DNA of 64,000 nt, taken from positions 1 to 64,000 of the IMG/VR virus record IMGVR_UViG_3300043392_000054; one strand, given 5' to 3'. Source of the stretch: a virus. Positions 24,271 to 64,000 of this stretch are shown here, piece by piece; position 1 is the stretch's first letter; every line of letters begins with the position of its first letter. A program made the translations under genes and the position numbers. The notes beneath the pieces are model-generated. The model was not told the origin of the DNA and did not search any database. It saw nothing but the letters and a program-made list of their open reading frames with translations.

Positions 24271-24639
24271 ATGAAAACATTTTTAGAATATCTTTCAGAG
24301 CAAAATGTAACTAACCAAGAGTGGGATATGTTACAAGAATCTTTAACTTCTGAATTAACTCCAGAACTAGAAGAAAAGATAGATATGGCTATTGATGAAT
24401 TTATGTTTAACTATGAAGACCACAATGGCCTAATCGATATTGAAAGATTTAACGAAGAATTAACTAACGAAGGTCTTCTTGGTTCTATTATTGGCGGTTT
24501 AACTGGTTTTGCTCTTGGAACTACAGTTGGTAAAATTGTAGCTAGAGCATTAGGAGTTCAATCTGGACTTCTTTATGATTTATTAACTTCAAGATTAGTT
24601 GGTGCCTCTATAGGTGCTGCTCTTGGTAACCGCATCTAA
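24271..24639 (+). CDS. Small protein with a capsid-targeting-like N-terminus and a glycine-zipper C-terminus
   Basis: N-terminus MKTFLEYLSEQ; LTNE|G followed by GxxxG repeats (GSIIGGLTGFALG...VGASIGAALG). Confidence 0.6.
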   Translation: MKTFLEYLSEQNVTNQEWDMLQESLTSELTPELEEKIDMAIDEFMFNYEDHNGLIDIERFNEELTNEGLLGSIIGGLTGFALGTTVGKIVARALGVQSGLLYDLLTSRLVGASIGAALGNRI

Positions 24640-24640
24640 T

Positions 24641-25318
24641 ATGCAAATTATTGCAGTTGACTTTTCTTTAAATTCCCCCGGTATCGTAGTCCTTACTCAA
24701 AAAGGCTTAAAGTTTATTTCATATCTAAAACCTGGTATGGGAACTAAAGCTGAAACTAAAATGCAAGAAGAACTTGCAATGCTTAAAGATATTACACTTA
24801 AATTTCAACCCATTTTTGAAACCTCAAAAGACTTTTCTGAAAAAGAAATCTCAAAGTTATATAGATTTATTACAATGTCTAATGATATTATTAGTTTAAT
24901 TGATGATTTAGACCTAATAGACCCTAAATTACCTATAACTATTGCTTTTGAAGGTGTTTCTTATGGTTCTTCTGGTGGAGGCACTAATAATCTAATTGAC
25001 TTAGCAGCTGGAGCAGCCATATTTAAGTTTCATCTATTTACTAAATATAACACAAAAGAAAGAGACCTAAAGTTTAACATTGTAACCGTTGCTCCGACCT
25101 CTATAAAGAAATTTGCAGGTGGAGGCAGAATGAATAAATTAGAACTTTGGAATTCTTTTATTGAAAATAATCTTAAAGACCAAGCATTAGCAAAAAGTGA
25201 TGTGTGGGGCCTAGCTAGTAAACTAGAAATTGGTAAAAAGGTTCCAAAGCCCTTTGATGACTTAGTAGATGCTTATTATTTAGCTATGTACATTAAGGAC
25301 CTTAATCTCCTCCCTTAA
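24641..25318 (+). CDS. RuvC-like Holliday junction resolvase
   Basis: RNase H-fold catalytic motifs IAVDFSLNSPG, IAFEGVSYG and DDLVDAYYLA; ATG at 24641. Confidence 0.75.
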   Translation: MQIIAVDFSLNSPGIVVLTQKGLKFISYLKPGMGTKAETKMQEELAMLKDITLKFQPIFETSKDFSEKEISKLYRFITMSNDIISLIDDLDLIDPKLPITIAFEGVSYGSSGGGTNNLIDLAAGAAIFKFHLFTKYNTKERDLKFNIVTVAPTSIKKFAGGGRMNKLELWNSFIENNLKDQALAKSDVWGLASKLEIGKKVPKPFDDLVDAYYLAMYIKDLNLLP

Positions 25319-25419
25319 ATATACCTTGTAAACCGGAAACCCTAAACTTATATTCTAGGGTCTCATTTTTGTTTCAAGATTTTTAGATTATTTTTAAATT
25401 ATTTTTAAATATATACTAT

Positions 25420-25617
25420 ATGAGAAATTTAAAAGGACAAGACTCATCTTTATTGACTCCAGGAGAGTATTTAACACTTTATAGTCTACTGCATAAAATG
25501 CTTTTGATAGGTAATATTCAAGAAGAAGAATTAGAAAGCCTATTGCAAAAGTGTGGCTTAACTAAAATAGAAGCTGACTTATATAAAGACTCTGCTGGAA
25601 ATAATTATAAGATGTAA
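25420..25617 (+). CDS. Hypothetical protein, 65 aa
   Basis: ORF track; AATATATA at 25408 lies just upstream. Confidence 0.5.
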   Translation: MRNLKGQDSSLLTPGEYLTLYSLLHKMLLIGNIQEEELESLLQKCGLTKIEADLYKDSAGNNYKM

Positions 25618-25619
25618 TT

Positions 25620-25646
25620 GAAACTATTTTAAATAGCTCTATATAA
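25620..25646 (+). promoter_or_regulatory. Candidate phage promoter GAAAC-N15-TATATAA upstream of gp32
   Basis: The same spaced motif recurs at 40194, 44796, 50709 and 60560. Confidence 0.55.
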
Positions 25647-25734
25647 TTACAGTTAACGTTTAAGAAAGGTACCTAAAAGAATTAACGCATTAACGGAATT
25701 TAAACAATTTAAAGAAAATTAAAGTTTTAAAGAC

Positions 25735-26673
25735 ATGGCAGATTTTGACATTTTTAATCTAGGGGTCAACGATGTTGACACACACGAAGTACAAACATCA
25801 TCATCAGGTGATAATATGTACAAACCAACAGCCGACCAAGGCAAAGACGGAACTTACAAAGCAATGATTCGTTTTGTTCCAAATCCAGCAAATCCACGCA
25901 ATTCATTAATCAAAAAATACGTACACTGGCTAAAAGATGCAGGTGGCGAAGGTAAATTAATTGATTCACCATCTTCTATTGGTGATAAGTGTCCAATTGC
26001 AGATGCATTCTTCAAATTACGTAAGTCTGATTCAGCAGTAGACCGTAAGATGTCAGAGCAATTAAAGCGTCGTGAACAATATTATGCATTAGTTAAGGTC
26101 ATTAAAGACCCTCAGTTTCCTGAATTCGAAGGAACATATAAGATTTTTAAATTTGGTTATAAAATCAAAGAGAAAATCGACGAAGAATTAAAACCAACAT
26201 TTGGCGACCCAACTCAAGTATTTGACCTTTTTGAAGGTAAGAACTTTGAATTAATCATTACTCGTCAAGGTGAATATAACAATTACGATAAATCTAAATT
26301 CTCAGCTAGTCGTTCAGCTATCTTAATTGATAATAAGCCTGCTGAAAAAACAAAAGAGAATATGGAAGTAATTAAAGCTGAATTAGAAAAAGCTCCGTCA
26401 TTAGAACCGTATGAGTTTAAAGCTTGGGACGATGAAACACGTGATTTTGTTAATTCAATCTTACGTCAATACTTAAATCCAGGTTCATCTATGGATTCTA
26501 TTGCAAACTCAACTCCTAAACCAGCAGCTAAACCAGCTCCTGCTAAAGTTGCAGAATCAGTTTCGGCGCCAAGCGGCAATCCTGATATTGATGCATTTGA
26601 AGCGGGCTCTTCATCAGTTGCAGTTGATTCAGGCGATGATTTAGATTCATTCTTAAATGATTTAGATTTATAA
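25735..26673 (+). CDS. gp32: Single-stranded DNA-binding protein, T4 gp32-like
   Basis: IRFVP...KKYVHW...CPI, YYALVKVIKDP, FKFGYKI, FDLFEGKNF, NYDKSKF, and an acidic tail ending DDLDSFLNDLDL. Confidence 0.9.
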   Translation: MADFDIFNLGVNDVDTHEVQTSSSGDNMYKPTADQGKDGTYKAMIRFVPNPANPRNSLIKKYVHWLKDAGGEGKLIDSPSSIGDKCPIADAFFKLRKSDSAVDRKMSEQLKRREQYYALVKVIKDPQFPEFEGTYKIFKFGYKIKEKIDEELKPTFGDPTQVFDLFEGKNFELIITRQGEYNNYDKSKFSASRSAILIDNKPAEKTKENMEVIKAELEKAPSLEPYEFKAWDDETRDFVNSILRQYLNPGSSMDSIANSTPKPAAKPAPAKVAESVSAPSGNPDIDAFEAGSSSVAVDSGDDLDSFLNDLDL

Positions 26674-26694
26674 AATAAACTTTTTTAAGTTTAC

Positions 26695-26728
26695 AATTAA
26701 GACCTATTAGTAATAGTAGGTCTTAATT
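26695..26728 (+). terminator. Intrinsic terminator hairpin after gp32
   Basis: AATTAAGACCTATTA-GTAA-TAGTAGGTCTTAATT followed by T residues. Confidence 0.75.
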
Positions 26729-26736
26729 TTGTTAAA

Positions 26737-27816
26737 TTGGGTTATATGTCATCTAAAATATCAGAAGAACTTAAGTTTAAAATAAAGACTTTATTTAAGC
26801 AAGTTGTCCTTAAAGAACATAAGGCTGGTGGCAAAACCATGTTAAAAGATATGCCAGGTCGTATTAGCTTAGCATGTCCTTATTGTGGTGACTCTACCAG
26901 AGATGATAAAATGAAACGCGGTAATTTATACTGGGATACATTACAATATCACTGTTTTAACTGCGGTCAACACTCAGATGCGTATCAGTTTCTTAAGGAC
27001 CATGGTGTTAGACTTAATTCAGATGAAACAATAGAACTTATTGATTATGTTAAAGAACATAGAATTGAAACAAATCATGCCGATGTACTTCAACATGGAG
27101 TTTATTCTAAAGTAATTGAAATCGCCCCAACAAAACAAGACCTAAGAGATGGTTTAGGATTTAAAGATATTATTGTTGGAGATTCAGCTTGGTTATATCT
27201 AAGAAATAGAATGCTTCATAATAAGTTAGATTATTTCATGTTTTCCCCCAAAGATAAGCGCTTATATATTTTAAATTTAGGGCCTAATGATAAAGTAATA
27301 GGTATGCAATCAAGAGCTCTTATTAAAACAAAAAGTTCTAGATATTTAACGTATGACGTATTAAAAATAAAAGAATGGCTTGGACAACCATTTGAAATAG
27401 ATGAAGAATCAACATCGAACATTGGTAAAATATCAACGCTATTCGGTATTTTACAAGTTGATATGAATAGACCTGTAACTATTTTTGAGGGACCGATGGA
27501 CCGATTATTTATGAACAATTCATTGGCATTAGCATCAGCTCAAAGAGATACAACAGAATTAGATGAGATACCAACCGTTAGATATATGTTTGATAATGAT
27601 AAAGTGGGTAAAGAAAAGATGATGCAAAAAATGAAACGAGGTAAAAGTGTATTTACTTGGGATAGATTTTTAAGCGAAACTAAGATGGATAAATATCCTA
27701 GTACAATTAAAGATTTAAACGATTTAGTAATGGCATCATTTGCGATTAAAAGCGAATGTTTAAAAAAGATAGAAGAATATTTTAGTACTTCACCTTTAGA
27801 TGCTTATTACTTATGA
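26737..27816 (+). CDS. gp61: DNA primase, T4 gp61-like
   Basis: Zinc finger CPYCGD...HCFNC; TOPRIM motifs IFEGPMD and MFDND. An alternative ATG lies at 26746. Confidence 0.85.
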   Translation: MGYMSSKISEELKFKIKTLFKQVVLKEHKAGGKTMLKDMPGRISLACPYCGDSTRDDKMKRGNLYWDTLQYHCFNCGQHSDAYQFLKDHGVRLNSDETIELIDYVKEHRIETNHADVLQHGVYSKVIEIAPTKQDLRDGLGFKDIIVGDSAWLYLRNRMLHNKLDYFMFSPKDKRLYILNLGPNDKVIGMQSRALIKTKSSRYLTYDVLKIKEWLGQPFEIDEESTSNIGKISTLFGILQVDMNRPVTIFEGPMDRLFMNNSLALASAQRDTTELDEIPTVRYMFDNDKVGKEKMMQKMKRGKSVFTWDRFLSETKMDKYPSTIKDLNDLVMASFAIKSECLKKIEEYFSTSPLDAYYL

Positions 27817-28028
27817 TGTCATTAATAATGATGGTTGAGAAAGAATTAGAAGATTTTGAAAACGAAAGAGATAAACACAAAGGTTTAAAATCGTTAGTTG
27901 ATTTTAATACCGGTTTAACCGAATATACAGGTTCAAATTCATCTATAGAAATTAAACCAGTATTTAAAAAGAAACTAAAGGTTTCTATTTATAGAAAAGA
28001 AGATAAGAATAAAGGTCAATTGTTTTAA
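27813..28028 (+). CDS. Hypothetical protein, 71 aa
   Basis: ORF overlaps the primase stop (ATGA). Confidence 0.5.
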   Translation: MMSLIMMVEKELEDFENERDKHKGLKSLVDFNTGLTEYTGSNSSIEIKPVFKKKLKVSIYRKEDKNKGQLF

Positions 28029-28038
28029 TAACAAATAT

Positions 28039-28485: not shown

Positions 28486-28501
28486 AAAATAGTAGCATGT
28501 T

Positions 28502-30007: not shown

Positions 30008-30048
30008 GTTAGATATATAAATAAATTGTAATAAAAAAATAAAATATT

Positions 30049-31791
30049 ATGTCAGTACAAAGAATTAGTTCATTCAAAACTTTCACTGAAGTTAAGAATC
30101 AACAAGCATCCATTAAGATGCATGAAGAGAATAAAGCAAAAAGAGAACAACTTTTAGCTAAGATTGGTCAAACTCTTGAAGAAGAAGGCGTTACATCATT
30201 TGATGAATTAGATGAAGAGAAAAGAGGTGCTCTAGTCGCTAAAATTTTTAACGAAGATAGAGCTGAAGATATTGAAGCTGCTAAAGTTAAAATGGGTCAA
30301 CCTAAGAAACATGAAGATGAAGAGGGTAAAGCTTTACAAGCTACATCTGAAGGGAATGCATTTATTTATGCTGCAGCAAAAGCTAAAGCTGAAGGTAAAG
30401 ATGAATTTGAACATGACGGTAAAAGATATAAAGTAACTATAAAATCAGATACAGGTCTTAAAGAATCATCGTTAAGTGAATCAAAGGAATCACAAGAAGC
30501 CGAAGACATTCTAGATGACATTTTAGGTGAAAGAGATATGGAGGAAATTCACGGTATGTCAATGGAAGATGCATTAGATACAGTTGAAGCATACGGTCAT
30601 TCTGGCTCGAAAGCAAAAAAGATTGCTAAAGAACTTTGGTCATTATGTAATGAATCCAATGTTAATGAAGCTCGTTCAATTAATAAAATCCAAGGAGATT
30701 GGTCTAAAGTAACAGCTGAAATGGCAGCAAAAGCACAAGAGTGGAAAGCTACTGAAGGTGATGCTAAAGCTAAAATTTTAGATGAATTAAAAGCTTTAAC
30801 AGCAAAAAAGAAAGCTTTAGAAGCTGAATTAGATGCAGCGGTTGCTGGTAAAGATAAAGATTTAGAATTAGCAGTTAGCGAATCTTTAGAAGTAAACGAG
30901 TCAAAAATAGATGCATACGAAAATGAAGCATATAAACTTTCATTAAAATTAAAAGAAGTAGTCGATAAGTTTAGATTTGCTGCTCAAGATAAAATAAAAG
31001 ATGTAGAAGACAAGAAAAAAGCAGACCAAATAGTTAAAGCTTTAGATAGACTACACCCTATTTTACCTGAATTAGACGGCGCTCTTATTAATTTAAAAGC
31101 AGTTTTAAAAAGTGCAGGTGTAACTTTAGAATCTTTAGAAGTAAACGAAGATATTGATATTTTTGATAAAACTGCTGACCTTATGAATAAATTACAAGTT
31201 CAAATTGGTAATTTATTACATGCAGCAAAAGGAAATAAAGATTGGACTAAAGAATTAGAAGCTATTAAAGCTGCTTTTGAAAAATTAGAAGATAGAATGT
31301 CGATTGCTAGTAAGAAACTAGGTATGATTCCAGAATCAACTGAGGTTAACGAAACTGAAGAAGTTAACGAAGCAGACATTAATTCAGATGAAGAATTTAA
31401 AGAATATGCATTTACTGTTTTAAAGAAAGCATTTGGTGAAGATTTTGATGAAGCTAAAGCTCAAGAAGTTGTAGATGGTATTTTATCTAAATCAGATGGA
31501 GACTATGGTTCTGCTGTTGGTATGTTAACGAGCTCTTTGGGAGAATCAGTTACAAATGAAGCTACTGTTGAAGTAGATGCAGTTGACCCTAAAGATAAAG
31601 GTCTTGCTAAATTATTAAAGAAACATAAAGTTACTTTAGAAGTAATTAATAAAGAAGGACCATCTGGTTTTCCAGAAGTTAGATTAACAGGAAGTGCTAA
31701 AGACCTTAAAGCTGTTTTAGCCGATGGCGAATATGGTTGGGATGATGAAGACCTTGCTGATTATATCGAAGAGTCAAATACTGAAAACTAA
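30049..31791 (+). CDS. Modular acidic head-associated protein with repeated E-S-x-x-x-N-E linkers (probable protease-processed internal protein)
   Basis: Linkers LKESSLSES, CNESNVNEA, ESLEVNES, ESLEVNED, ESTEVNETEEVNEA and GESVTNEA separate helical modules. Confidence 0.55.
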   Translation: MSVQRISSFKTFTEVKNQQASIKMHEENKAKREQLLAKIGQTLEEEGVTSFDELDEEKRGALVAKIFNEDRAEDIEAAKVKMGQPKKHEDEEGKALQATSEGNAFIYAAAKAKAEGKDEFEHDGKRYKVTIKSDTGLKESSLSESKESQEAEDILDDILGERDMEEIHGMSMEDALDTVEAYGHSGSKAKKIAKELWSLCNESNVNEARSINKIQGDWSKVTAEMAAKAQEWKATEGDAKAKILDELKALTAKKKALEAELDAAVAGKDKDLELAVSESLEVNESKIDAYENEAYKLSLKLKEVVDKFRFAAQDKIKDVEDKKKADQIVKALDRLHPILPELDGALINLKAVLKSAGVTLESLEVNEDIDIFDKTADLMNKLQVQIGNLLHAAKGNKDWTKELEAIKAAFEKLEDRMSIASKKLGMIPESTEVNETEEVNEADINSDEEFKEYAFTVLKKAFGEDFDEAKAQEVVDGILSKSDGDYGSAVGMLTSSLGESVTNEATVEVDAVDPKDKGLAKLLKKHKVTLEVINKEGPSGFPEVRLTGSAKDLKAVLADGEYGWDDEDLADYIEESNTEN

Positions 31792-31849: not shown

Positions 31850-33130
31850 ATGAAAGCACTTTTAAATTATACAGAATTCCTTATTGAAAAATGGAATCAA
31901 AAGTATCCAACTTTAATTATGGAAGGTGGTGCAGCTGGCCACATGATGCATCCCTTTGATGATGACACTTTAACCTTTGGAGAAATCAAACACATCATAG
32001 ATGCTGCTTTACAGGGTAAATTAAACTTCGAAGAGGCACCAACTGAAAAAACAGATGGTCAAAATCTATTTGTTACGGTTAAAGGTGGAAAGGTTTTATT
32101 TGCTAGAAATAAAGGACAAATGAAAAGTCCAATAGACATTACACAAATTACGCAAATGTTCTTAGACCATCCATCTCCTGCAGTTAGAGATACTTTTACA
32201 TTTGCTGCAAATGATTTAGCTGGTGCATTATCTCACTTATCTGCTAAAGACCAAGCTGACTTTAATGATGGTAAATCATTTATGAATATGGAGTTAATTT
32301 ATTCAGGTAATGCAAACGTTATTTCTTATGAAAAGGATGTAATTCAATTTCATGGTATGATTCATACTGATGGAGAAGGTAACCAAACTGGTTCTGATTC
32401 TAAATTAGCTGGTAAAATTGCTGGAGCTTTAAAGGATGTTAATATGCATATTCAAAAAACTTTTGAAATTATACCTCCACAAGAACTTCAAATAGGTAAA
32501 GCAATTAATTTTGATGAAAAGAAATCTTATTTCTTAAATAAGATACAAACTTTACAAAATAGGTATAAGTTACAGGATACTGACCCAGTTTCAAAATATC
32601 ATGCAATGTGGTGGAAAGAACTGATTGACAAGGACTTTAAGAACCTAGACGAAATCGATAAAGCGGGTTTAGTTCAGAGATGGGCTTTTGATGATAAGAA
32701 AACTCTTAATGTTAGAGACTTAGCAAAGAAGATGTCTGCTGATGAATATAAAGAATTTCAACGTTTTGATAAAGAAGACGCTAAAAAGAAATTTAAGGAG
32801 AACATTGAACCATTTGAAAATTTATTCTTAGAATTAGGTTCTGTTGTTTTAAAAAATGTTTCGAATTTATTAGTTGCAAACCCTGATAAAGAAATGCAGC
32901 GTTTACACAATCAAATTAAAACCGAAGCAGATAAAATTAAACAAAACGGTGATTTAAGCCAAATGGCTAAAGTTGAAAAAGAATTAAATAGATTAAATTC
33001 AATTGGAGGTATTGAATCAATTGTACCTTCAGAGGGTTTAGTATTTCAATATAAAGGAAAGCTGTTTAAGCTGACTGGAACATTTGCTGCGATAAATCAG
33101 TTAATGGGTATAATAAAATATGGCAGATAA
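31850..33130 (+). CDS. Ligase-fold (ATP-grasp, RNA-ligase-like) nucleotidyltransferase with a capsid-targeting-like N-terminus
   Basis: Motif I PTEKTDGQN, motif III NMELI, motif IV SEGLVF and motif V FKLTG; N-terminus MKALLNYTEFLIE; EGGAAGHMMHPFD. Confidence 0.6.
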   Translation: MKALLNYTEFLIEKWNQKYPTLIMEGGAAGHMMHPFDDDTLTFGEIKHIIDAALQGKLNFEEAPTEKTDGQNLFVTVKGGKVLFARNKGQMKSPIDITQITQMFLDHPSPAVRDTFTFAANDLAGALSHLSAKDQADFNDGKSFMNMELIYSGNANVISYEKDVIQFHGMIHTDGEGNQTGSDSKLAGKIAGALKDVNMHIQKTFEIIPPQELQIGKAINFDEKKSYFLNKIQTLQNRYKLQDTDPVSKYHAMWWKELIDKDFKNLDEIDKAGLVQRWAFDDKKTLNVRDLAKKMSADEYKEFQRFDKEDAKKKFKENIEPFENLFLELGSVVLKNVSNLLVANPDKEMQRLHNQIKTEADKIKQNGDLSQMAKVEKELNRLNSIGGIESIVPSEGLVFQYKGKLFKLTGTFAAINQLMGIIKYGR

Positions 33131-33180: not shown

Positions 33181-35043
33181 ATGGCATTACAAAGACTAAG
33201 AGATTTTTATCAAGCAACAAATAGCAATACATTTAATGAAATGTTAAAGCAAAAAGTTATTGTAACTGAGAAAATTGCTTCAACATCATTTCATGTTAGA
33301 AGAGGTTTAGAAGGATTTGAATATTTTAAATCTGGAAATACTGAACCAATGACAATGGTTGATAGAACTTTAACTTCATTATATGAAGTAGGAATTAAGC
33401 ATTTTCAAAGTCTTGTAAAAGATGTTAAAGAGGATATGCCAACTGATTGGAAATTCGGCTTTGATTATTTACCAGAGACTAATATTTCTTCTAGAATACA
33501 ATATGACCAAACACCATTTAATTTTATGATACTGTCACATATTCAAGTGATGACAAGTACTGGTAAAGTTAAAAAGGTTTTAACAGACCCTGTTGTTCTT
33601 AAAGAATGGGCTAATAAATTACAAGTACAAGCACCTACAATTATTTTTGAAGGTAATTTAGACCAATTACAAAAACAAGCATTGGTTAATTTATTATCGA
33701 CTTCAAATGAATCTTATCAAAAAAGATTTGCCAATGAGTCATTTACAAAACACGTATATAAATTATTTAATCCATCTGCATATAAATCAGTTCTTAATGA
33801 AGACTTAGAAAAACCAATTGATGGCTTAGTAATTAGCTTTATTGATTCTACGCAAATTAAGTCATTTAAATTAGATGAAGCATTAGAGCAACCTGAAGAG
33901 GTAAGAGAAAGCAGCCACATGTACCAATTAACAATGGTAGATATGCTAGAATATTTTTCTAATTACAATTTAGATTCAATCGAACTAGTAGAAACAGCTG
34001 CAGATAAAAGATATATTGAATTAGTTTCAACTATGTTTAATTCATACGTTAAAGAAAATGCAACCAAATATATCGGGGTTAATTTTAATTCTGCAGATTT
34101 TTCAAAATCCGAAATGTTTCAGCTAAATACAAAGTGGATTCAAAATGAAACAACACTAAGATACATTGAAAATCCTATTTTAGGAGAATTGTATAAAATA
34201 GTTTTAGGTTCATTTAATAAAAAGAAGATTAAAGAATCAACAATAATGAATCAAACTATGATTGAACAATTAAATGAAATTATTGACCAAATTGATGCAA
34301 AAATATACGCAGAACAAACTGATGAAAATGCAATTTATCAATTTAATCATTTCTTGTTAAAGAATAAAATTGCTGGAGCAAAGACAGACTTAAACGAAGC
34401 GCTTAAGATTGACTACCCAGAACAAGGAAAAGAAAAAGTTAATATATTTGTTGGTAGATTTCAACCATTCACCACAGGTCACGTAAAGGTCTTAGAAACA
34501 CTATACAAACAAAATGGGTATCCTGTAATTGTATTTTTAGTTAAAGCTAAAACTGCAAAAAAAGAGGATGCTATTAAAAGACCATACGATGTTGATACTC
34601 AAATAGAAATGTTTAATGCGGTTCAAAGAGAATACAAATTCTTAAAAGAAGTTATAGTTGTTCCATCTGCTGCGATTGACGTAATGTTTAATGAGTTAAG
34701 ACCTAAATATGAACCAGTTTTATGGGGCACAGGTACAGACCGAATGAAGGCATACGGTTATATGGTTAATAATGACAAATATAGAGATGAATTAGGAGTT
34801 CTTCCAGAATTTGGTCTTTATGAAATTCAAAGAGGCGACGATGATGTATCTGCTACTAAAGTTAGAAAGGCTTTAGAAGATGGAGATGCTAAAGAGTTTA
34901 ATAAAATGACACCTAATTCTTTACACTTTATGTTTGATGAACTAAAATCTAAATTAGAAGCTTCATTAGCTACATTAGAATCAATTGAAACAAATTTAGA
35001 TAATGATATACTAACATTTGAACAATTCATAACTAAACAATAA
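33181..35043 (+). CDS. Fusion of a degenerate ligase-like domain and a HIGH-motif cytidyltransferase/NMNAT-like domain
   Basis: N-terminal VTEKIAS...IDGLVI; C-terminal FVGRFQPFTTGH, GTGTDR and VSATKVRKAL. Confidence 0.65.
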   Translation: MALQRLRDFYQATNSNTFNEMLKQKVIVTEKIASTSFHVRRGLEGFEYFKSGNTEPMTMVDRTLTSLYEVGIKHFQSLVKDVKEDMPTDWKFGFDYLPETNISSRIQYDQTPFNFMILSHIQVMTSTGKVKKVLTDPVVLKEWANKLQVQAPTIIFEGNLDQLQKQALVNLLSTSNESYQKRFANESFTKHVYKLFNPSAYKSVLNEDLEKPIDGLVISFIDSTQIKSFKLDEALEQPEEVRESSHMYQLTMVDMLEYFSNYNLDSIELVETAADKRYIELVSTMFNSYVKENATKYIGVNFNSADFSKSEMFQLNTKWIQNETTLRYIENPILGELYKIVLGSFNKKKIKESTIMNQTMIEQLNEIIDQIDAKIYAEQTDENAIYQFNHFLLKNKIAGAKTDLNEALKIDYPEQGKEKVNIFVGRFQPFTTGHVKVLETLYKQNGYPVIVFLVKAKTAKKEDAIKRPYDVDTQIEMFNAVQREYKFLKEVIVVPSAAIDVMFNELRPKYEPVLWGTGTDRMKAYGYMVNNDKYRDELGVLPEFGLYEIQRGDDDVSATKVRKALEDGDAKEFNKMTPNSLHFMFDELKSKLEASLATLESIETNLDNDILTFEQFITKQ

Positions 35044-35044
35044 A

Positions 35045-36490
35045 ATGTCAGGAACTTACGGAGATATTAGAGCTCGTTTTGCTACTGCTTTAAATAAAGC
35101 TGTCAACGAATCCAAATCGGGTGGAGAAAGTGAACTTTTAAATGCATTAAGACCCGCATTTGATAAAGCCGGATATGATGGTAAAATAGAATCAGGTAGA
35201 AGACCTAAGCATTTAAGATATATGTTAGGTAAAAATGTTAATGATACTTTAGCCAGTATTAATGCTGTTTTAAAAAGAGAATTAAGCAATTATACAATTG
35301 ATACAATTTCACCAGGAGATTATAAATCAGGTTCCTTTTCAGGTAAATATTATACCTTTAATATTATTTTACAAGATAGTACAGTAGTTAGGGGTGTTGA
35401 ATTTCCAGCAGGTATTGAATTTAAAATAGTAAATGATGATGTTCCAGCTGGTTCAATTTCAGCAAAAGCATTGACACCCGTAGGATTAGGTTTACCTTCT
35501 ACTTATATGAATCAGCAGCAAATAATCAATGTGACTAAAAATGCTGTATCTTCTAAATATAAAGATGATGATTTAATTATAGAACTATTACATTCATTAG
35601 TAAATGATGTTGCTGGCTTCTCTTCCAAACACAGATATGAATCTGCAGGAAACGTTGATACCTTTGAAGAAACTATTACATATTCGCCAAATACATCGCA
35701 CTTAATTTCACATTTTGACCCATCAGATTTAAATACAATAGGTAAAGATTTTGGTGAAATATTAGGAGCCATTTACATGTTAAATATATGCGGATATAAT
35801 AAAGGTATTGAATTTCCTAGTGGAAATAATCCATTAGTTGATTTTTATATTGATGGATTTGGCGTATCTTCTAAATATAAATCAGGAGCAGCACCAACTC
35901 TTTCGGGAATTATAAAGAATGTTAATCAAGACCAATTAACAACTGATGCAGAAAAAGATTTATTAGAAGTATTTAAAATCGTTGAAAGTAGTAAAGTATC
36001 CGAAGGTTATTTAAAAATAGCGAAGCACTTCAATATGCCAGGCTATCAAGCATTAGTTGAAATTACAAGACAAACAGATATAACAATACAATCTCTTAAT
36101 ACGTTTATTCAACAAATTTTATCTGAAAAACCAGAGGAGTTTATGAATATTTTTGATAAATTTTATACAACTATCGGTAGATTTCCACAAGGTAAAAAAA
36201 TAGAATGGAATAGAATTAAAGCAGAAAAAGTATATGGCGCAGTAATTGGACCTATCAGTTACCATGTAACTGATTTTTTAAATGCAAACGAACAAATTAA
36301 AGATGCACTTACAAATCTTTTATCTAAACTTGAAGTAAAACAATTGTATTTGGATTTTATTCCAAAAAGAAATGAGATACATCTTCATATGAAATCGTTC
36401 TCTACTGAAGGAGTTAAATTTACCTTCGAAGCGCCTAATCAATCAGTATATGTTCCAGATAATGGTAAGCTAGGATTTAAAATGAAATAA
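35045..36490 (+). CDS. Hypothetical protein, 481 aa, possibly with a PD-(D/E)xK nuclease-like core
   Basis: DFGEILGA...FPSGNNPLVDFYIDGFGVSSKYKSG resembles an E...PD...(S)xK restriction-like active site. Confidence 0.4.
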   Translation: MSGTYGDIRARFATALNKAVNESKSGGESELLNALRPAFDKAGYDGKIESGRRPKHLRYMLGKNVNDTLASINAVLKRELSNYTIDTISPGDYKSGSFSGKYYTFNIILQDSTVVRGVEFPAGIEFKIVNDDVPAGSISAKALTPVGLGLPSTYMNQQQIINVTKNAVSSKYKDDDLIIELLHSLVNDVAGFSSKHRYESAGNVDTFEETITYSPNTSHLISHFDPSDLNTIGKDFGEILGAIYMLNICGYNKGIEFPSGNNPLVDFYIDGFGVSSKYKSGAAPTLSGIIKNVNQDQLTTDAEKDLLEVFKIVESSKVSEGYLKIAKHFNMPGYQALVEITRQTDITIQSLNTFIQQILSEKPEEFMNIFDKFYTTIGRFPQGKKIEWNRIKAEKVYGAVIGPISYHVTDFLNANEQIKDALTNLLSKLEVKQLYLDFIPKRNEIHLHMKSFSTEGVKFTFEAPNQSVYVPDNGKLGFKMK

Positions 36491-36527: not shown

Positions 36528-38414
36528 ATGAACTTTGAACAGTTTTTAAATGAAGCTAAAAATTTTAAAGTAGGAGACACTTGGGAGTGGCATGGTAAAG
36601 ATTGGTCTGCTGACCAAAAGAAAGATGTTGATACTATCAAGAAAGTTAAAATTACTAAAGTTGAAGGCTCTAATATTACAGGTCAATTTGATGGCGAATC
36701 TAAAGAGTATATCATTAGAGATGCTAACAAATACTTAAAGAAAAAAGTAAATGAGTCTGAAGAAATTACAGAATCTAACATCAAAGTTGGAGATACGGTT
36801 TCTAGAAAATTTATGGGAGAAGACCCAACTCAAACTTTCAAAGTTATTAGCATTTCAGGTGGTAAAGCTAAATTAAAAGATACTAAAACTGGAGAAGAAA
36901 ACGGAATGTATCTTTCTGACCTAATTAAAGAGTCTGAAGAATTAGAAGAAGCTACAAAGGAAAATCCAAGCGTTTGGGTTCCTGGCGGATTTGATAAAGA
37001 AATGTCAAAATATCCAAATAATAAAATAACTAAAGAAATAGTTCTTAAAGCTGCTAAGAAATATAACGTTGATGCAGAAGATGCTATTCAATATGTTGAA
37101 TTTGGATGGGATATAGATTTAAATGAAAGCGTAAATGAAGCTGAAGCGTCATACGGTTTATCTAAAGCCGAAACTAAAAAGGTTGCAGAAACTTTAGCTA
37201 AAGCAATCTCTAAAAATGACGGTGTTAAATGCACTGTTAATTTAAAATCATTAGAAGAAGATTCATTTGATTTAGATATCGATGGCGAGGAATATGAAGG
37301 TGGTTCTTATTATATCAATGATAAAGGCGAAGTAGTTAATGCTGCAATAACACCACATGAAATATATGGTAAAGCTGAATCTTCAGTTGAAGATTTTATT
37401 AAAGGTTTAAAGAAGCCAGTTAAAGAATCAGCAGAAGTTAATGAATCAAAAATCACAATTAAAAGACAATATACTGAAAATTACCCAGCATCAACTGTAG
37501 GTAAGCACGCTGGAGTTAGAAATAAAATTATCGAAGCTCTAAAAGATGGTCAATTAACTAAAGAAGAATTTGAACAATTAGTTTCAGGTTTAACAGAAGA
37601 TTCTAAAAGATGGTTAAAAAGAAATGCAGCATTCTTTAATATTCAAGAAGACCAAGTTTCATTATCTGCAACAGGTAAAAAGATTTTAAAATCTATTGAC
37701 GAATCGGGTTATAGACCAATGACAGATGCAGAAAGACAAAAAGCCCAATATAAGAAAAATCAATTAGCAAGATTAAGAGCCGTTGATAAGAAAGAAGAAG
37801 AAGGCAAAAGATTAAGAGCTTTACAGCAAAAGTTACATCAGCAAAAAATGAGAAAGGCAAATGAAAGCTTTATTTATGAATCATTCTCTGAGTTTGTTGA
37901 AAATGAATTAAATGAAAAGGCCTATAGATTAACAGGTCATTATACTACTAAAGGAATTATTGGTAAAGTGATGCAGACCTTTAAGAAACATATAGAGCAT
38001 ATTAAATATGAAGAAGATGTTGAAAAAACTTTAAAAGAAGTCAATAAGGCATGGGAGCATTTTCACAATGAAGGTTCTAAAATAATCTTAGATGAAGTTC
38101 ATAAGGCAGTTAAAGATATGGAACAAGTCCTTTATGTTCAAGTTGATGGATTAAGCCAACGTTGGGAAGCAGATACTATTAATAAATTAAATAAAGAAGG
38201 CGGACCTTTGTATATTGTAATTCCTGGCGATTTTGTAATTAACATTGGATTCATGGATGATGTAGACGGTTCTAAATTTAAAAACAAATTAGGCGGTATG
38301 ATGAATAGTGCTATTTCTGGAGGTGAAGATTTATATGGAGAATTTGACCCTGAAATAGATGAAAATAACGTAGAGATTAGAGGAAACGAAGTTATACAAA
38401 TAGATTCAAAATAA
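36528..38414 (+). CDS. Modular head-associated polyprotein-like protein with a capsid-targeting-like N-terminus
   Basis: MNFEQFLNE|A; linkers VNESEEITES, IKESEELEEA, LNESVNEA, VKESAEVNES and NELNEK; two tandem (F/I)KVGD SH3/KOW-like modules. Confidence 0.55.
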   Translation: MNFEQFLNEAKNFKVGDTWEWHGKDWSADQKKDVDTIKKVKITKVEGSNITGQFDGESKEYIIRDANKYLKKKVNESEEITESNIKVGDTVSRKFMGEDPTQTFKVISISGGKAKLKDTKTGEENGMYLSDLIKESEELEEATKENPSVWVPGGFDKEMSKYPNNKITKEIVLKAAKKYNVDAEDAIQYVEFGWDIDLNESVNEAEASYGLSKAETKKVAETLAKAISKNDGVKCTVNLKSLEEDSFDLDIDGEEYEGGSYYINDKGEVVNAAITPHEIYGKAESSVEDFIKGLKKPVKESAEVNESKITIKRQYTENYPASTVGKHAGVRNKIIEALKDGQLTKEEFEQLVSGLTEDSKRWLKRNAAFFNIQEDQVSLSATGKKILKSIDESGYRPMTDAERQKAQYKKNQLARLRAVDKKEEEGKRLRALQQKLHQQKMRKANESFIYESFSEFVENELNEKAYRLTGHYTTKGIIGKVMQTFKKHIEHIKYEEDVEKTLKEVNKAWEHFHNEGSKIILDEVHKAVKDMEQVLYVQVDGLSQRWEADTINKLNKEGGPLYIVIPGDFVINIGFMDDVDGSKFKNKLGGMMNSAISGGEDLYGEFDPEIDENNVEIRGNEVIQIDSK

Positions 38415-38421
38415 TAAAATT

Positions 38422-39132
38422 ATGCCAGCACAATCAAAAGCTCAACAAAGATTATTTGGAATTGCATACGCAGTTAAGAAGGGTAATATGTCTATTGAAG
38501 ATGTTACGCCTGAATATAAAAAGAAGATTAAGGACTTAATCGCAAATATGTCTATTGAGCAATTAAAGGATTATGCTGAAACTGATGCAAAAACTTTACC
38601 AGATACTGTTGAAGGAGATGATACATCAGAAGGTTTAGCTTTTGCTGCTAGTTATAATGCACCGCAAGGAGCTGCAATGCCCGGCTCAGGAATGGGTAAA
38701 ATACAGTTACCAGATATGTCAACTGGCGCAACTGGTTCTGGTGATAAAATTTCAGGACAGGGTAACGCTGAAGATGAATATAAAAAGGAGAAAAAGAAAA
38801 GAAAGAAGCTTTTACAAATGATTAAAACATATGAAAGCTTTTCACTAAATGAATCAGTTTCATTTAAAGCTAAATATAAATTAGAAGGTATTAAAGGCGA
38901 AGTTTCTTTTTTAGTCTCTTATTCAGATAGCATAGTTCAATTTATACCAGCTACTTCTAAAGATTTAGAATTGATTGATAAGATTGATGCTTCTTCTGGT
39001 TTACAAAAATGGTTAGACCATAAATTTGGTAAAGGCGGATTTATTAAAAATCAAGAAGGTAGAGCTGGGTATAGTTTTACAATTACAGATGATTTAATAG
39101 AGGATTCAATCCTTAAATTTTTAAAAGTTTAA
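38422..39132 (+). CDS. Hypothetical protein of the MPAxSKAQQR-type phage family, with an internal capsid-targeting-like motif
   Basis: N-terminus MPAQSKAQQRLFG; internal MIKTYESFSLNE|S at 38818. Confidence 0.55.
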   Translation: MPAQSKAQQRLFGIAYAVKKGNMSIEDVTPEYKKKIKDLIANMSIEQLKDYAETDAKTLPDTVEGDDTSEGLAFAASYNAPQGAAMPGSGMGKIQLPDMSTGATGSGDKISGQGNAEDEYKKEKKKRKKLLQMIKTYESFSLNESVSFKAKYKLEGIKGEVSFLVSYSDSIVQFIPATSKDLELIDKIDASSGLQKWLDHKFGKGGFIKNQEGRAGYSFTITDDLIEDSILKFLKV

Positions 39133-49523: not shown

Positions 49524-49617
49524 ATGTTTTAAGGAGATATATAATAAAATAATCTTAAACATATTTTTTTATTTCACGTAAATTAATTATATTTGTATAT
49601 CAAAAAACAACAAAATT

Positions 49618-49950
49618 ATGAAACACATTAAATTATTCGAACAGTTCGTAAACGAAGCTGTTAAATTTATCGATTTTAAATTTAACTCGCATAAAGACCA
49701 TAATCCATCATGTGATATTTTACAAGGTCACTTAGATGCAGATACTTTTATTACATACGGAATTTATATTAAAGATTATGGCGCAAGAAAAACCGGAGAT
49801 GAATTTATGGAATACTACACAGGTGAAAACTATAATGTAGGTTCATCTAAAAAATCAAATTCTAGAGTGTATACTGTGGATAAAATTCCAGCAAAATATA
49901 AGGCTGCTTGGGAAGAGTTAAAGTCAAAATACGAAGCTGAATATAAATAA
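49618..49950 (+). CDS. Small protein with a capsid-targeting-like N-terminus (MKHIKLFEQFVNE|A)
   Basis: ORF track; motif shared with other genes in the window. Confidence 0.65.
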   Translation: MKHIKLFEQFVNEAVKFIDFKFNSHKDHNPSCDILQGHLDADTFITYGIYIKDYGARKTGDEFMEYYTGENYNVGSSKKSNSRVYTVDKIPAKYKAAWEELKSKYEAEYK

Positions 49951-57211: not shown

Positions 57212-57212
57212 T

Positions 57213-58886: not shown

Positions 58887-58898
58887 TAATTAGATATA

Positions 58899-59702: not shown

Positions 59703-59743
59703 TATCAGGATATATAGTTAAAGCATAAAAAAATAAGCACATA

Positions 59744-60505: not shown

Positions 60506-60527
60506 TTTTTTTACATTTCATATTTAT

Positions 60528-60551
60528 AAAAGGGACCTAGCGTCCCTTTTT
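60528..60551 (+). terminator. Intrinsic terminator
   Basis: AAAAGGGAC-CTAGC-GTCCCTTTTT. Confidence 0.82.
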
Positions 60552-60609
60552 GTCTTTAATAAACAAAACAAAGATTCTGTGTATAATTAATTAAAAAATA
60601 AGATAAACC

Positions 60610-61017
60610 GTGAATCAAGAAAAGTCAGAAAAACCAAAAGCTCTCAGAAAGAAGAACTATTTAAACAATGCAGATTTTTACGCTGCAATAGTTGCTTCTA
60701 AAGAACAAGATAAGTTAACTAGAGATGCTGAGAAAATGTTAATTTTATTGGCTCAAAAAGCTATCAATAAAATGAAATACGTTGATGAAAAGGACAAAGA
60801 AGATTGCTTACAATTTGCAATTCTTGACCTTTTAAAATATTGGCGTAATTTTAATCCTCAGTATACAAATGCTTTTGCTTATTTTACAGAAATTGCAAAG
60901 AAAGGTTATGCTAAAGGTTGGAACGCAATTCATCCCTTAAAATATAAAGGAACCTTATCCATCGATAGAGCTGGTAGAAAGGATGGAGAAGATGGAAGTG
61001 GTATTTATACAATCTAA
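60610..61017 (+). CDS. gp55: Late-transcription sigma factor, gp55-like (region 2 only)
   Basis: NYLNNADF...DKEDCLQFAILDLLKYWRNFNP...NAFAYFTEI; GTG start. Confidence 0.8.
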   Translation: MNQEKSEKPKALRKKNYLNNADFYAAIVASKEQDKLTRDAEKMLILLAQKAINKMKYVDEKDKEDCLQFAILDLLKYWRNFNPQYTNAFAYFTEIAKKGYAKGWNAIHPLKYKGTLSIDRAGRKDGEDGSGIYTI

Positions 61018-61502
61018 TGTCAATTAAAAACGTTAAACCTACTAAAAACTCTGGTTTTAATCAGGGTTATTTTAATCCACATAATCCACAAAAATATGTT
61101 GGTCCATCTCCTATTATTTATAGGTCATCATGGGAACGTAAATTTATGATATGGTGTGATTCTAATGAAAAGGTTTTAATGTGGTCTAGTGAACCTATTC
61201 AAATAGAATATCATTCTAGACAAGATAATAAGAAGCATAATTACTTTCCAGATTTTTATATGAAAGTATTACAAGCTGATGGTAAAATAAAAGAATTTTT
61301 AGTTGAAATTAAACCAAGTGCTCAAATACAAAAACCAGAACCTCCTAAAACAAAATCTAAAAAAGCAGTAGATTCATATAGATTTTTAGCAGAACAGTAT
61401 GTTAAAAATATGGATAAATATACAGCTGCTAAAGCATATTGTCTTAATAGAAATTGGAATTTCATAGTTCTAACTGAAAAATCAATCAATGGCTTACATT
61501 AA
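61017..61502 (+). CDS. gp4: Head completion protein, gp4-like (TnsA-type endonuclease fold)
   Basis: QGYFNPHNPQKY, YRSSWERKFM..CD, WSSEP, YFPDF and LVEIKP. Confidence 0.88.
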   Translation: MSIKNVKPTKNSGFNQGYFNPHNPQKYVGPSPIIYRSSWERKFMIWCDSNEKVLMWSSEPIQIEYHSRQDNKKHNYFPDFYMKVLQADGKIKEFLVEIKPSAQIQKPEPPKTKSKKAVDSYRFLAEQYVKNMDKYTAAKAYCLNRNWNFIVLTEKSINGLH

Positions 61503-62103
61503 AAAAGAAATTAATAAAATTGTTAAAGATTCAGGCGGGAAAAAGAAAGCCCGCATGTTATCTGAACAATGGTTTAATGATAGTCTTAAATCTAAAAAGA
61601 TTAAAGACGTGGAATTAACGCCAAAACCATTTAAACCGGGTATGATTTACGTTTTTAATTATGTACATCCATTAGGTCAAGACCATCTAGATTGGTGGGA
61701 TAAACATCCAGTTGTATTAGCCTTAATGCCAATTGATAAGTACACGGATTGTGGTATTAATTTAAATTTATTACCATCAAAATTTAGAGAAGAACTATTA
61801 GATAAATTCTATGATGCATTTCATGCTCCAATTAATTCAAACACAAAGGGAGTTAAGAAAAATAATGCAATCTTACAAAAAGCCTTAATAGTTCGATATG
61901 ACAAAATTAAAAAGTATCTAGATAAATTTGGCTTTGGTTTTGCAATTAGAAGGTATAAACCAAACTTAAAAAGAGGTCAAGCTGTTGTTAGTTACGAGAG
62001 TTGGGCTAGAATGGCTCTTTGTGATTTCATTAAATTAAATGGTTCAACAGTTGCAGCAGTGAGACGTATGTTTGTGGAGTATAACGCTAATAGAAATTTT
62101 TAA
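61489..62103 (+). CDS. gp2: DNA end protector, gp2-like
   Basis: PGMIYVFNY...WDKHPVVL...GINLNLLP...AIRRY; adjacent to gp4 and the portal. Confidence 0.7.
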   Translation: MAYIKKEINKIVKDSGGKKKARMLSEQWFNDSLKSKKIKDVELTPKPFKPGMIYVFNYVHPLGQDHLDWWDKHPVVLALMPIDKYTDCGINLNLLPSKFREELLDKFYDAFHAPINSNTKGVKKNNAILQKALIVRYDKIKKYLDKFGFGFAIRRYKPNLKRGQAVVSYESWARMALCDFIKLNGSTVAAVRRMFVEYNANRNF

Positions 62104-62145
62104 GAGAATATATAATAAAATAATATAAAACTTTAATCCATAATT

Positions 62146-63765
62146 ATGGCAGGATTCGTAGATAGAAACGGCCCATTTAGTACAGGTAAACGACAATTTA
62201 ATTTAAGTGATACACTTAAGAAATTATCGTCGTTTGGTATGTATTACGATGACATGGTATTGAGACAATCTCAAGCCATTGGACCAGCTGAGGACCAATT
62301 TGGTTACGGCCAAATGAACTTAATGGGCGTTGATTCAGATGACATTTATGGTGCATTCGCAGCACTTTCGATGGCAGATACAAACATGAGAAAGAACATT
62401 CCGTTCTTTGACATGAATTATAAATCTAAAAGAGAAGAATTAAGACAATTCTCTTTATATGATGAAATCGAGGACATTCTAGACATTTTATGTGATGAAT
62501 CAATTGTATTTGATGAAAAGAATTTCGTAGCAACACCTTCTTTAATTGGTTTAGAAGTTTCTTCAGATGTTACAGAATATTTAAATAAAGCATATAGAAA
62601 CATTTATCAATATTTTGGCTTCGCAGCTGACCAATCTATTTGGTTTTATTTTAGAAAATGGTTAATTGACGGTTATTTATCTTTTGAGATTATTTATAAC
62701 CCAGAAATGACAGAGATTATTGGTTTTAAAGAGATTGACCCAGTTACTTTGGTACCAGCTTATAATAAAGATGATGGTAAAAAAGTTTGGATTCAGTTTA
62801 AAGACGACCCGATTAAAGAGAGAAAGTTATATGATGCACAAATCATCTATATTTCTTATTCTTCTATTACAACAGCTTCTCGTATTTCTTACGTAGAAAG
62901 ATTAATTAGAGCATTCAACTTAATGAGAGTTATGGAACATACTAGAGTTATCTGGGCTGTTACTAATGCCTCATATAGAATGAAGTTTATTATTCCAGTT
63001 GGTGGTAAATCTAAGACTAGAGCAAAGCAATCGCTTGCGCAGTTAATGAATAACTATAAAGAAGTAGTTGACTTTGATTGGGATTCAGGCGTTCTTAAGA
63101 CTAATGGTAAACCAATGCTTCAATTCAATAAGGAATATTGGTTACCTTCTAAGGATGGTGAGCAACCTGAAATTGAAACTTTAGGTGGAGAAGGTCCAGA
63201 GATTAATGATGTTGATGCATTAAAGTATTTTGCCGATAAATTAAAGCACGTATCTAAGATTCCATATAGTAGATTTATGTATGAAGATGGCGGTGGAGAA
63301 AACAATCTAGCTGCAGATGGTATGATTAGAGATGAAATTAAATTCTCTAAGTTTGTAAATCGTTTACGTTCTTCATTCCAAGAAATTTTAGTGAAGCCAT
63401 TATGGTTACAAATGTGTATTAAATTCCCTGAATTTAAAGAAGACCCAGCATTCAAAACGCAAATCTCATTAAGATATAATGAAGAGAACATGTTCGCTGA
63501 AATGAAAATGATGGAGATTATGGAAAAACGTTTAGACTTTATCTCTAAAATGAAGAGCGATTTAATGATTCAAAATCCAATGACAATGGAAGAAGAATAT
63601 TACTTCGATATGGACTTCTTAGTTGATAAGTACCTTAAACTTTCACCAGACGATAAAGCTGCAAACGAAGCTGCTAAAGCTAGAAAGGATGCAGAAAAGG
63701 CTAAAGAACCACCAGCTGACCCAATGGGAATGGGCGGAATGGGAGGAGGCCTAGGAGGATTCTAA
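62146..63765 (+). CDS. gp20: Portal protein, gp20-like
   Basis: EIEDILDILCDESIV, WLIDG, IDP, SYVERLIRAFN...ME...IWAVT, EYWLP..DG...IETL.G and IRDEIKFSKFV.RL. Confidence 0.92.
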   Translation: MAGFVDRNGPFSTGKRQFNLSDTLKKLSSFGMYYDDMVLRQSQAIGPAEDQFGYGQMNLMGVDSDDIYGAFAALSMADTNMRKNIPFFDMNYKSKREELRQFSLYDEIEDILDILCDESIVFDEKNFVATPSLIGLEVSSDVTEYLNKAYRNIYQYFGFAADQSIWFYFRKWLIDGYLSFEIIYNPEMTEIIGFKEIDPVTLVPAYNKDDGKKVWIQFKDDPIKERKLYDAQIIYISYSSITTASRISYVERLIRAFNLMRVMEHTRVIWAVTNASYRMKFIIPVGGKSKTRAKQSLAQLMNNYKEVVDFDWDSGVLKTNGKPMLQFNKEYWLPSKDGEQPEIETLGGEGPEINDVDALKYFADKLKHVSKIPYSRFMYEDGGGENNLAADGMIRDEIKFSKFVNRLRSSFQEILVKPLWLQMCIKFPEFKEDPAFKTQISLRYNEENMFAEMKMMEIMEKRLDFISKMKSDLMIQNPMTMEEEYYFDMDFLVDKYLKLSPDDKAANEAAKARKDAEKAKEPPADPMGMGGMGGGLGGF

Positions 63766-63782
63766 TAAACAATAATAAAAAT

Positions 63783-64000
63783 ATGAAAACTTACATTAAA
63801 ACATTTGAGCAATTCATTTTTGAAAATGATAACTCTGTAAAGGCACCAGATTCTAAAGTATTTATAGATGATGTAACTATTGAATCAGGAGAAACAATTA
63901 AAGCTGCTGAAATTTTAGGTGCTATCACTTCATCTGAAACTGAAGAAGAATTTAAATCTTATTTCTTCGAAACATACGGGCAAAACGCATTTACAGTAGA
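63783..64000 (+). CDS. Partial ORF (3' truncated) with a capsid-targeting-like N-terminus, probably a prohead core/internal protein
   Basis: Translated by hand: MKTYIKTFEQFIFENDNSVKAPDSKVFIDDVTIESGETIKAAEILG...; directly follows the portal gene. Confidence 0.7.
   Translation, partial: MKTYIKTFEQFIFENDNSVKAPDSKVFIDDVTIESGETIKAAEILGAITSSETEEEFKSYFFETYGQNAFTV

Follow-up and report, generated by a model that had tools for sequence, protein, structure and literature searches.

The stretch of viral DNA analysed here (the window, 64,000 nucleotides) makes up the initial 64 kb of a virus contig of 182,829 bp from IMG/VR (record IMGVR_UViG_3300043392_000054, hereafter G000), which has a G+C content of 30%, carries nearly all of its genes on the plus strand and was estimated by CheckV to be 64% complete. 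The subject is a short leader peptide that stands at the start of several unrelated open reading frames (ORFs) in this window, together with the genes bearing it and the head genes next to them. An earlier note had pointed out this leader, had likened it to the capsid targeting sequence (CTS) of phage T4 and had proposed it to be a portable label that loads diverse cargo, including enzymes, into the phage head. All six N-termini that had been quoted were found where they had been placed, at the genes starting at positions 24271, 31850, 36528, 49618 and 63783 and, in a weaker form, at 30049, and the quoted internal and C-terminal copies were present as well (Table 1). Genes are named below by their first position.

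The leader and its likely counterpart in T4

In its usual form the leader has 13 residues, MK-x-[IV]-K-L-F-E-Q-F-[IVL]-N-E. Its strict core, written as the regular expression [FY][EQ][EQD][FY][LIVM].E, was searched in the proteome of the contig (234 ORFs, 56,596 residues) and matched 13 times, in all 13 cases inside the first 15 residues and never internally, while 500 shuffled proteomes gave a mean of 0.18 matches and a maximum of 3. Six-frame translation of the entire 183-kb contig yielded 14 matches. A looser form of the motif found 16 leaders genome-wide, of which five lie in the window (24271, 31850, 36528, 49618 and 63783), one at 155292 and the rest clustered at 174868–182703. After removal of the first 16 residues, no pair of cargo proteins matched in BLAST below E = 0.007, which ruled out paralogy as the source of the common leader. 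Near-identical leaders on unrelated ORFs are thus real, and the case for them is stronger than had been claimed. In IMG/VR, the leader pattern gave more than 120 loci. A literature search with leader motif strings (KLFEQF and similar) retrieved no paper.

The conserved unit could in principle be the nucleic acid, as a translation-initiation or regulatory element or as a recombination site, with the peptide a by-product. The genes are without Shine-Dalgarno sequences, the leader DNA is A/T-rich and recombination occurs at leader and joint sites, which would all agree with this explanation. However, at common amino acids the third codon base was identical in 67% of leader pairs, where codon usage alone predicts 62–77%, the aliphatic residue varies among I, L and V and is encoded by different codons, and the peptide also stands in frame between modules and at C-termini, far from start codons. 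Since third-base sharing matches the prediction from codon usage, selection acts on the leader peptide and not on the DNA. Conservation at the DNA level and gene conversion were ruled out because synonymous sites of the leader vary as codon usage predicts, and we regard the nucleic-acid explanation as highly improbable.

MKTYQEFIAE, which had been given as the CTS of T4 internal proteins, is the start of both ipII and ipIII. The DNA pattern of the core matched the T4 genome three times, twice at codons 4–10 of ipII and ipIII and once antisense within gene 32. Residues 59–65 of T4 gp23 read FGSFLTE, and gp23 is matured after Glu65. Mutational mapping of the CTS of IPIII assigned residues 4 and 7 chiefly to targeting and residues 8 and 10 to processing, and Asp at position 10 blocked processing and kept targeting (PMC9026906). 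These targeting and processing residues are the four fixed positions of the leader. For comparison, 42 leaders were taken from this phage and from its relative G005 (L142), whose 256-kb genome is complete, has terminal repeats and holds about 24 leader genes; the capsid proteins of the two are 89% identical. The equivalent of position 4 is F or Y in 42 of 42, that of position 7 is F, Y, H or W in all (F or Y in 39), that of position 8 is I, L or V in all and that of position 10 is always Glu, where the search expression itself demanded these residue classes and the residues observed are much narrower than it allowed. In 24 of these 42 leaders, the Glu is followed by A, S or G at P1'. The leader of 24271, MKTFLEYLSE, equals T4 MKTYQEFIAE in length and register. 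In G005, which also has about 23 leaders of 13 residues, a 142-aa ORF on the minus strand (855–1283) starts with MTYAEFIAE, close to the T4 core YQEFIAE. We regard the leader as likely to be the form that the T4 CTS takes in this lineage.

Table 1. Positions of leader-bearing genes, joints, promoter-like boxes and head genes
Feature	Position	Strand	Details
122-aa cargo ORF	24271..24639	+	leader MKTFLEYLSE 24271-24300; C-terminal glycine-zipper hydrophobic segment 24472-24555
Late-promoter-like box ATATATAA	30013..30020	+	36 nt ahead of the start codon of 30049
580-aa acidic multi-module protein	30049..31791	+	variant leader MSVQRISSFKTFTE; E-x-V-N-E type joints end at residues 207, 284, 367, 435, 441, 504
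426-aa RNA-ligase-like protein	31850..33130	+	leader MKALLNYTEFLIE; invariant K67-x-D69-G70; second conserved hydrophobic-x-E site before EGGAAGHM
620-aa protein: RNA-ligase-like N-domain, joint, NMNAT-like cytidylyltransferase module, C-terminal stub	33181..35043	+	joint KTDLNE 34381-34398; stub LTFEQFITKQ 35011-35040
481-aa ORF	35045..36490	+	detached from 33181 (stop-A-ATG); starts with a 22-residue stretch ending AVNE
Late-promoter-like box ATATATAA	36493..36500	+	35 nt upstream of 36528
628-aa beads-on-a-string cargo polyprotein	36528..38414	+	leader MNFEQFLNE; joints end at E76, E141, E204, E306, E463
Internal leader-like joint FIYESFSEFVENELNE	37869..37916	+	inside the 36528 protein
236-aa protein: DUF3008 domain, Gly/Lys-rich linker, joint, 92-residue second module	38422..39132	+	joint MIKTYESFSLNE 38818-38853
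110-aa cargo ORF	49618..49950	+	canonical leader MKHIKLFEQFVNE; Bacteroidota-type TATATTTG box at -30; late-like box at 49537
Portal protein (gp20-like), start of T4-order head module	62146..63765	+	phrog_213 E 1e-67; late-like box 62108-62115
Acidic 123-aa ORF	63783..64000 in window, runs to 64154	+	leader MKTYIKTFEQFIFE; gp67/gp68 slot in the portal-protease gap
Prohead protease-scaffold fusion, 616 aa	64213-66063, beyond window		PF03420, phrog_207
Major capsid protein	66213-67676, beyond window		PF07068
(G)ATATATAA boxes	window 30013, 36493, 46753, 49537, 62108; beyond 64183, 67761, 72923, 75332 and others		

Internal copies, joints and the prohead protease

The earlier note had listed the internal and C-terminal copies of the motif, which are there, but had missed their role as joints and joint stubs of modular polyproteins as well as the repeats in the scaffold. 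Alignments with homologs indicate that these copies are joints of modular polyproteins. The leader core of the 36528 product is kept in 113 of its 119 homologs, and across these homologs the starts and stops of local alignments pile up at residues 190–210, 300–309 and 460–479, with breakpoints at E204, E306 and E463. In P0155–P0158 the leader is directly followed by SKITLKR..., the module that follows ...AEVNE in 36528, with the same start residue. The module that follows FIYESFSEFVENELNE (residues 464–628) is found as a free-standing leader-bearing gene in L006 (MKHIKLFEQFINE+KAYRLTG...; 51% identity over 167 aa) and, also free-standing and with a full leader, at 177148 in G005 (46% identity). 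The AlphaFold model of the 36528 protein has a pTM of 0.30, and its segments with pLDDT below 50 (residues 1–10, 66–83, 137–151, 200–207, 301–328 and 432–474) cover the leader and every joint. In the alignments and in the model alike, several x-x-Glu sites lie between parts of the precursor that appear to fold independently. Over all leader-bearing proteins, VNE[SAEG] is about 20-fold enriched.

A joint can also be the place where a protein is divided. The products of 33181 and 35045 form a single protein of about 1120 aa in P0137, P0143, P0144 and P0148, joined by ...LTFNQFINE+AYEP..., so in this phage the polyprotein has been split exactly at the joint; the letters TAAAATG at 35041–35047 comprise the stop of the one gene and the start of the other. 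In diverse homologs of the NMNAT-like module, a unit of the LTFNQFINE type follows, which either leads to more modules or ends as a stub, and in L118, L013, L069 and L093 the module is free-standing with a leader. C-terminal stubs have kept the aromatic pair and often lost the Glu. By analogy they may still be functional, because in T4 such a combination targets without being cut (PMC9026906). Similar rearrangements were seen in other genes. The ortholog of 38422 in G005 ends five residues past its own joint copy (...SYESFIFEKYGKL, then the stop), the ortholog of 30049 in the same relative (758 aa) has kept both ends and has different middle modules with similar joints as bounds, and the module of 63783 is in relatives either free-standing or placed behind one or two extra modules via hydrophobic-x-E joints (...VNE, ...LSE, ...IQE). 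In Microcystis phage Mel-JY01 (L123, 8299–10218), a cytidylyltransferase precedes a ligase-like module, joined by ...IIAE+GGLGGHM, which is the opposite of the module order in 33181.

The protease that might cut these sites is encoded next to the portal gene and its acidic neighbour. It is an S77 prohead protease (PF03420, E 1.4e-12 and 1.1e-10; phrog_207, E 6e-41) fused to a coiled-coil scaffold. Its domain, at about residues 1–165 of the fusion, ends with an invariant AELKRVNE followed by [AST][YF]GF, as do the domains of 14 of 15 relatives. V-N-E, the commonest ending of leaders and internal joints, therefore also stands at the boundary of the protease domain. T4-like and phiKZ-like proteases cut themselves on the C-terminal side (PMC5694885). 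The scaffold part is an array of repeats of about 14 residues, each with the unit Y-x-x-[YH]-[LIV]-A-E, conserved in 15 relatives, whose scaffolds have 5–8 copies of the aromatic core each. When the core was loosened to [FYW]-x-x-[FYHW]-[LIVM]-x-E, the proteome gave 34 matches, consisting of the 16 leaders, eight copies in the protease-scaffold fusion (YSKYLAE, YASYLAE, YSEHVAE, YSEHIAE, YTNYLAE, YMEYLKE, YAEYVAE and FFKFISE) and ten elsewhere. Of 18 long leader-bearing contigs, 15 encode the fusion, and the other three are 33–42% complete. Three related jumbo contigs (G010, G012 and G014; L139–L141) have a second, short S77-like protease fragment (a 132-aa open frame) far from the head module.

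From these elements a course of events can be proposed. The two aromatic residues, three apart, would dock a protein onto the scaffolding core during prohead building, the scaffold itself being built from repeats that match the leader core. The aliphatic-x-Glu end would then be cut by the S77 prohead protease, which would free the cargo in the head for ejection with the DNA. Between modules, the same unit would be a cut-here joint, so that one leader could load a chain of unrelated modules that are separated at maturation, and recombination at joints would swap, add or detach modules.

A leader of this kind might alternatively be a docking helix for a hub other than the capsid, such as a replication or repair factory, a chaperone or a tag-modifying enzyme. 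AlphaFold does model the leader as a short free helix, as would be expected for such a role, but the motif is repeated only in the protease-scaffold fusion, ends in the Glu that T4-type proteases require and picks out IPII and IPIII of T4, which makes another hub quite unlikely. A radical-SAM or other tag-modifying enzyme was sought and rejected, as PF04055 had no match in the G000 contig or in the complete relative G005.

Cargo, head genes, promoters and relatives

The RNA-ligase-like protein of 31850 has 1,763 homologs, and the leader is kept by nearly all of the 120 listed; the exceptions among these 120 are two clusters starting only at the internal MEGGAAGHM and one with a changed end. 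Across 17 diverse homologs, K67, D69 and G70 do not vary. A search for sequence matches in Pfam or the PDB found none. The best fold matches were all RNA ligases (Z 7.2–5.0) and the top 22 structural matches all RNA or DNA ligases, at scores that are only modest (Z 7.2–5.7, best Foldseek E 0.07). Among 50,697 phage records, only Mel-JY01 and two uncultured huge phages matched this protein; Mel-JY01 is the only cultured phage with a homolog, and the N-terminus of its fusion differs (MGKLINILLSELRLHIFSE). The N-domain of 33181 might be RNA-ligase-like as well, which features from the Atlas give as a lead only. Its N-terminus (MALQRLRDFYQ...TFNE) was considered as a second type of leader and was not counted, since homologs conserve it as a piece of the domain. 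For the 35045 product, Pfam and PHROG gave no match, and the leads from the Atlas, of restriction-endonuclease-like type, were only weak (0.87–0.88). The ortholog of 24271 in G005 is 74% identical and starts with MKTFVQHLEE, and orthologs of 49618 in L052 and L095 are 84% identical and have kept the leader; no homolog of 49618 was found in G005. Between 28000 and 40000 of the window, purines strongly outnumber pyrimidines on the coding strand (GC skew reaching 0.21 and AT skew 0.16), which coincides with the block of Glu/Lys/Asn-rich cargo.

Cargo encoded outside the window includes a Tad3 domain (E 9e-22), a zeta/AAA_33-type kinase and a 2H/Acb1-like phosphoesterase that only just passes the Pfam cut-offs. 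Tad3 in the cargo parallels IPI* of T4, which is injected. An Rnl-type RNA ligase with an EKIDGS motif is encoded at 122995–124098 of G000; its start (MYMKINLQILEQYVSE) is leader-like with Leu at the first core position. This gene (MKINLQILEQYVSE) was left out of the leader set because of that Leu and because the stretch may belong to the ligase fold.

The head genes follow the order of T4, with a gp2-like DNA end protector, the portal, a small acidic ORF, the prohead protease-scaffold fusion and the major capsid protein. The major capsid protein is 22% identical to T4 gp23 and the protease domain 30% identical to T4 gp21, and these comparisons place the uncultured phage as a very distant relative of T4. 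The nearest capsid proteins are those of an uncultured 462-kb phage (52%), Lak phages and Tenacibaculum jumbo phages. The product of 63783, which bears a leader and lies within this module in the slot of the T4 core proteins gp67 and gp68, is probably a core protein. The next gene after the capsid protein (67799–68872 of G000) has a late-like box and encodes a charged coiled-coil protein with a conserved N-terminus, M..NFENWYSK[IM][VL].E. This protein is longer in G005 (561 aa) than in G000 (357 aa) and could be a further decoration or head-internal protein.

A recurrent box, (G)ATATATAA, resembles the late promoter of T4, TATAAATA, and is probably the late promoter of this phage. Of its 26 copies on the plus strand, 15 sit 24–49 nt upstream of start codons; it is found at this distance from the portal, the protease-scaffold and the 67799 genes and also stands before the cargo genes 30049, 36528, 176127 and 180340. 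A candidate gene for a gp55-like late sigma factor, at 60610–61017, was spotted by eye from the sequence. The leader genes 49618 and 181497 have about 55 nt of upstream region in common (49548–49617 in the window and 181427–181496 of G000), which includes a Bacteroidota-type TATATTTG (−7) box. This box suggests an early promoter class used by the host polymerase and a host among the Bacteroidota. With late-like boxes on some cargo genes and TAnnTTTG on these two, the timing of cargo expression is probably mixed.

For the distribution of the leader, a degenerate DNA pattern of the 13-residue form was searched in IMG/VR and in 596 Gb of bacterial and archaeal genomes. The count of more than 120 loci in IMG/VR is a lower bound. 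The 140 complete tagged ORFs fell into 66 BLAST-unrelated clusters, or 77 when 20 proteins of this genome were added, and only about six of the 66 cluster representatives had a Pfam match. The cellular genomes gave three matches, two in unrelated archaeal proteins and one in a Bacillales ORF, which were read as chance and not as true leaders. Eight of the 20 cargo proteins compared are without a homolog in G005, so turnover of the cargo is fast. A cultured relative with virion proteomics was not found, and the ORFs 36528 and 63783 had no match in megablast and tblastn searches of the 50,697 phage records.

Proposed capsid loading and its possible consequences

In T4, the CTS of IPII and IPIII, and also of IPI and Alt, is removed by gp21 (Mullaney & Black 1996, reviewed in PMC9026906 and PMC3012670). 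Both systems have an N-terminal peptide of 10–14 residues on unrelated, fast-evolving proteins, with a core of aromatic-x-x-aromatic-aliphatic-x-Glu (Y4, F7, I8 and E10 in T4) and a small residue following the Glu, and they have in common the S77 protease, the order of the head genes and an anti-defence protein among the cargo (IPI* in T4). They differ in that the usual leader here has 13 residues and that 16–24 genes per genome are tagged, compared with a handful in T4. Furthermore, the cargo here includes large enzymes and multi-module chains, the motif is also found between modules and as C-terminal stubs, and the scaffold, unlike gp22, is fused to the protease and has aromatic-core repeats. 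CTS-like sequences on different basic proteins have also been noted in the hypervariable internal-protein loci of T2, T4 and T6 (cited in PMC9026906), which resemble the present case in combining a conserved tag with a set of cargo that turns over fast. Here, however, there are at least 66 BLAST-unrelated cargo families among 140 tagged ORFs, the organisation is that of polyproteins and the capsid protein is only 22% identical to that of T4.

Another comparison is offered by phiKZ, 201phi2-1 and SPN3US, in which head and ejection proteins are multiply processed by S80 prohead proteases that cut after Glu (PMC5694885, PMC7411985). These phages resemble the present one in a jumbo-type head that holds many internal proteins and, as predicted for it, in precursors with several cleavage sites, in a short x-x-E motif and in a protease that processes itself at the C-terminus. 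In contrast, their sites are of the A/S/G-x-E type, their propeptides have about 80–130 residues without a short portable aromatic tag, their gene order is not T4-like and no exchange of modular cassettes at joints is described for them in these two papers (PMC5694885, PMC7411985).

The multiply cut precursors raise the question of whether the motif might be a joint for processing and shuffling only, with precursors that are cut by the prohead protease or another enzyme and act in the infected cytoplasm, without packaging or injection. Joints and leaders are interchangeable and modules start exactly after the Glu, some leader genes have early-type promoter boxes, and RNA-ligase-like, kinase-like and NMNAT-like enzymes would be useful throughout infection. 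However, T4 gp21 acts inside the assembled prohead (PMC5694885), the best conserved positions are the aromatic ones, which T4 genetics assigned to targeting and not to cleavage, the scaffold repeats the leader core and one of the leader genes lies inside the head module. Taken with these points, a role in processing only is unlikely, although less so than a docking site outside the capsid.

The proposal of a portable label that loads diverse cargo, enzymes included, into the capsid was partly supported. Its predictions at the level of sequence all hold, in the four CTS positions, the S77 protease, V-N-E at the boundary of the protease domain, the leader gene in the gp67/gp68 slot, the late-like boxes common to cargo and head genes and the unrelated, quickly changing cargo with its enzymes and Tad3 domain. 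That all evidence comes from sequence counts against the proposal, and so do several other points. The leader genes 49618 and 181497 lie behind a host-type TAnnTTTG box and may for this reason be made early. The genes 33181, 35045 and 38422 are without a canonical N-terminal leader and, if their products are packaged, would need targeting via internal or C-terminal copies or by other means. A highly conserved RNA-ligase-like enzyme would be an unusual capsid cargo, and the N-terminus of the capsid protein, MAQLINE..., has the aliphatic-x-E part without the aromatic core. With these reservations, capsid loading is still the reading that we prefer. Because a T4-type peptide tags unrelated proteins and joins the modules of cargo chains, the phage probably ships enzymes and anti-defence proteins together with its DNA.

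A more far-reaching suggestion is that the leader amounts to one repeat unit of the scaffold, so that its carriers would assemble together with the core and come free through the cuts that take the scaffold apart, in a plug-and-play form of effector delivery. Dozens of exchangeable modules could then be chained behind one tag, separated as the head matures and injected in finished form before genes are expressed, among them two ligase-like proteins, the 2H phosphoesterase, the P-loop kinase, the NMNAT-like enzyme and anti-defence proteins such as Tad3. In T4 there is no precedent for such mimicry of the scaffold, as gp22 has repeated [LIV]-A-E endings without the aromatic part, and this weighs against the idea. 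We hold the suggestion as tentative and somewhat closer to doubtful than to probable.

The loading of varied proteins by a CTS in T4-like phages is already in the literature (PMC9026906, PMC3012670). New are the conservation of a probable CTS this far from T4, the size of the cargo set with enzymes and anti-defence proteins in it, the motif as a joint of polyproteins and the repetition of the leader core in the scaffold. If capsid loading by the leader holds true, the capsid-targeting rule of T4 would be ancient and general, kept at 22% identity of the capsid proteins, and would have been scaled up in this lineage into the modular delivery of pre-made enzymes and blockers of immunity. Mimicry of the scaffold repeat would be the suggested mechanism by which cargo is loaded, and tag, joint and module would be natural design rules for the engineering of phage capsid cargo. 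About 90% of the tagged families here are without known function, and capsid loading by the leader would also supply a simple sequence criterion by which injected phage effectors could be recognised in metagenomes.

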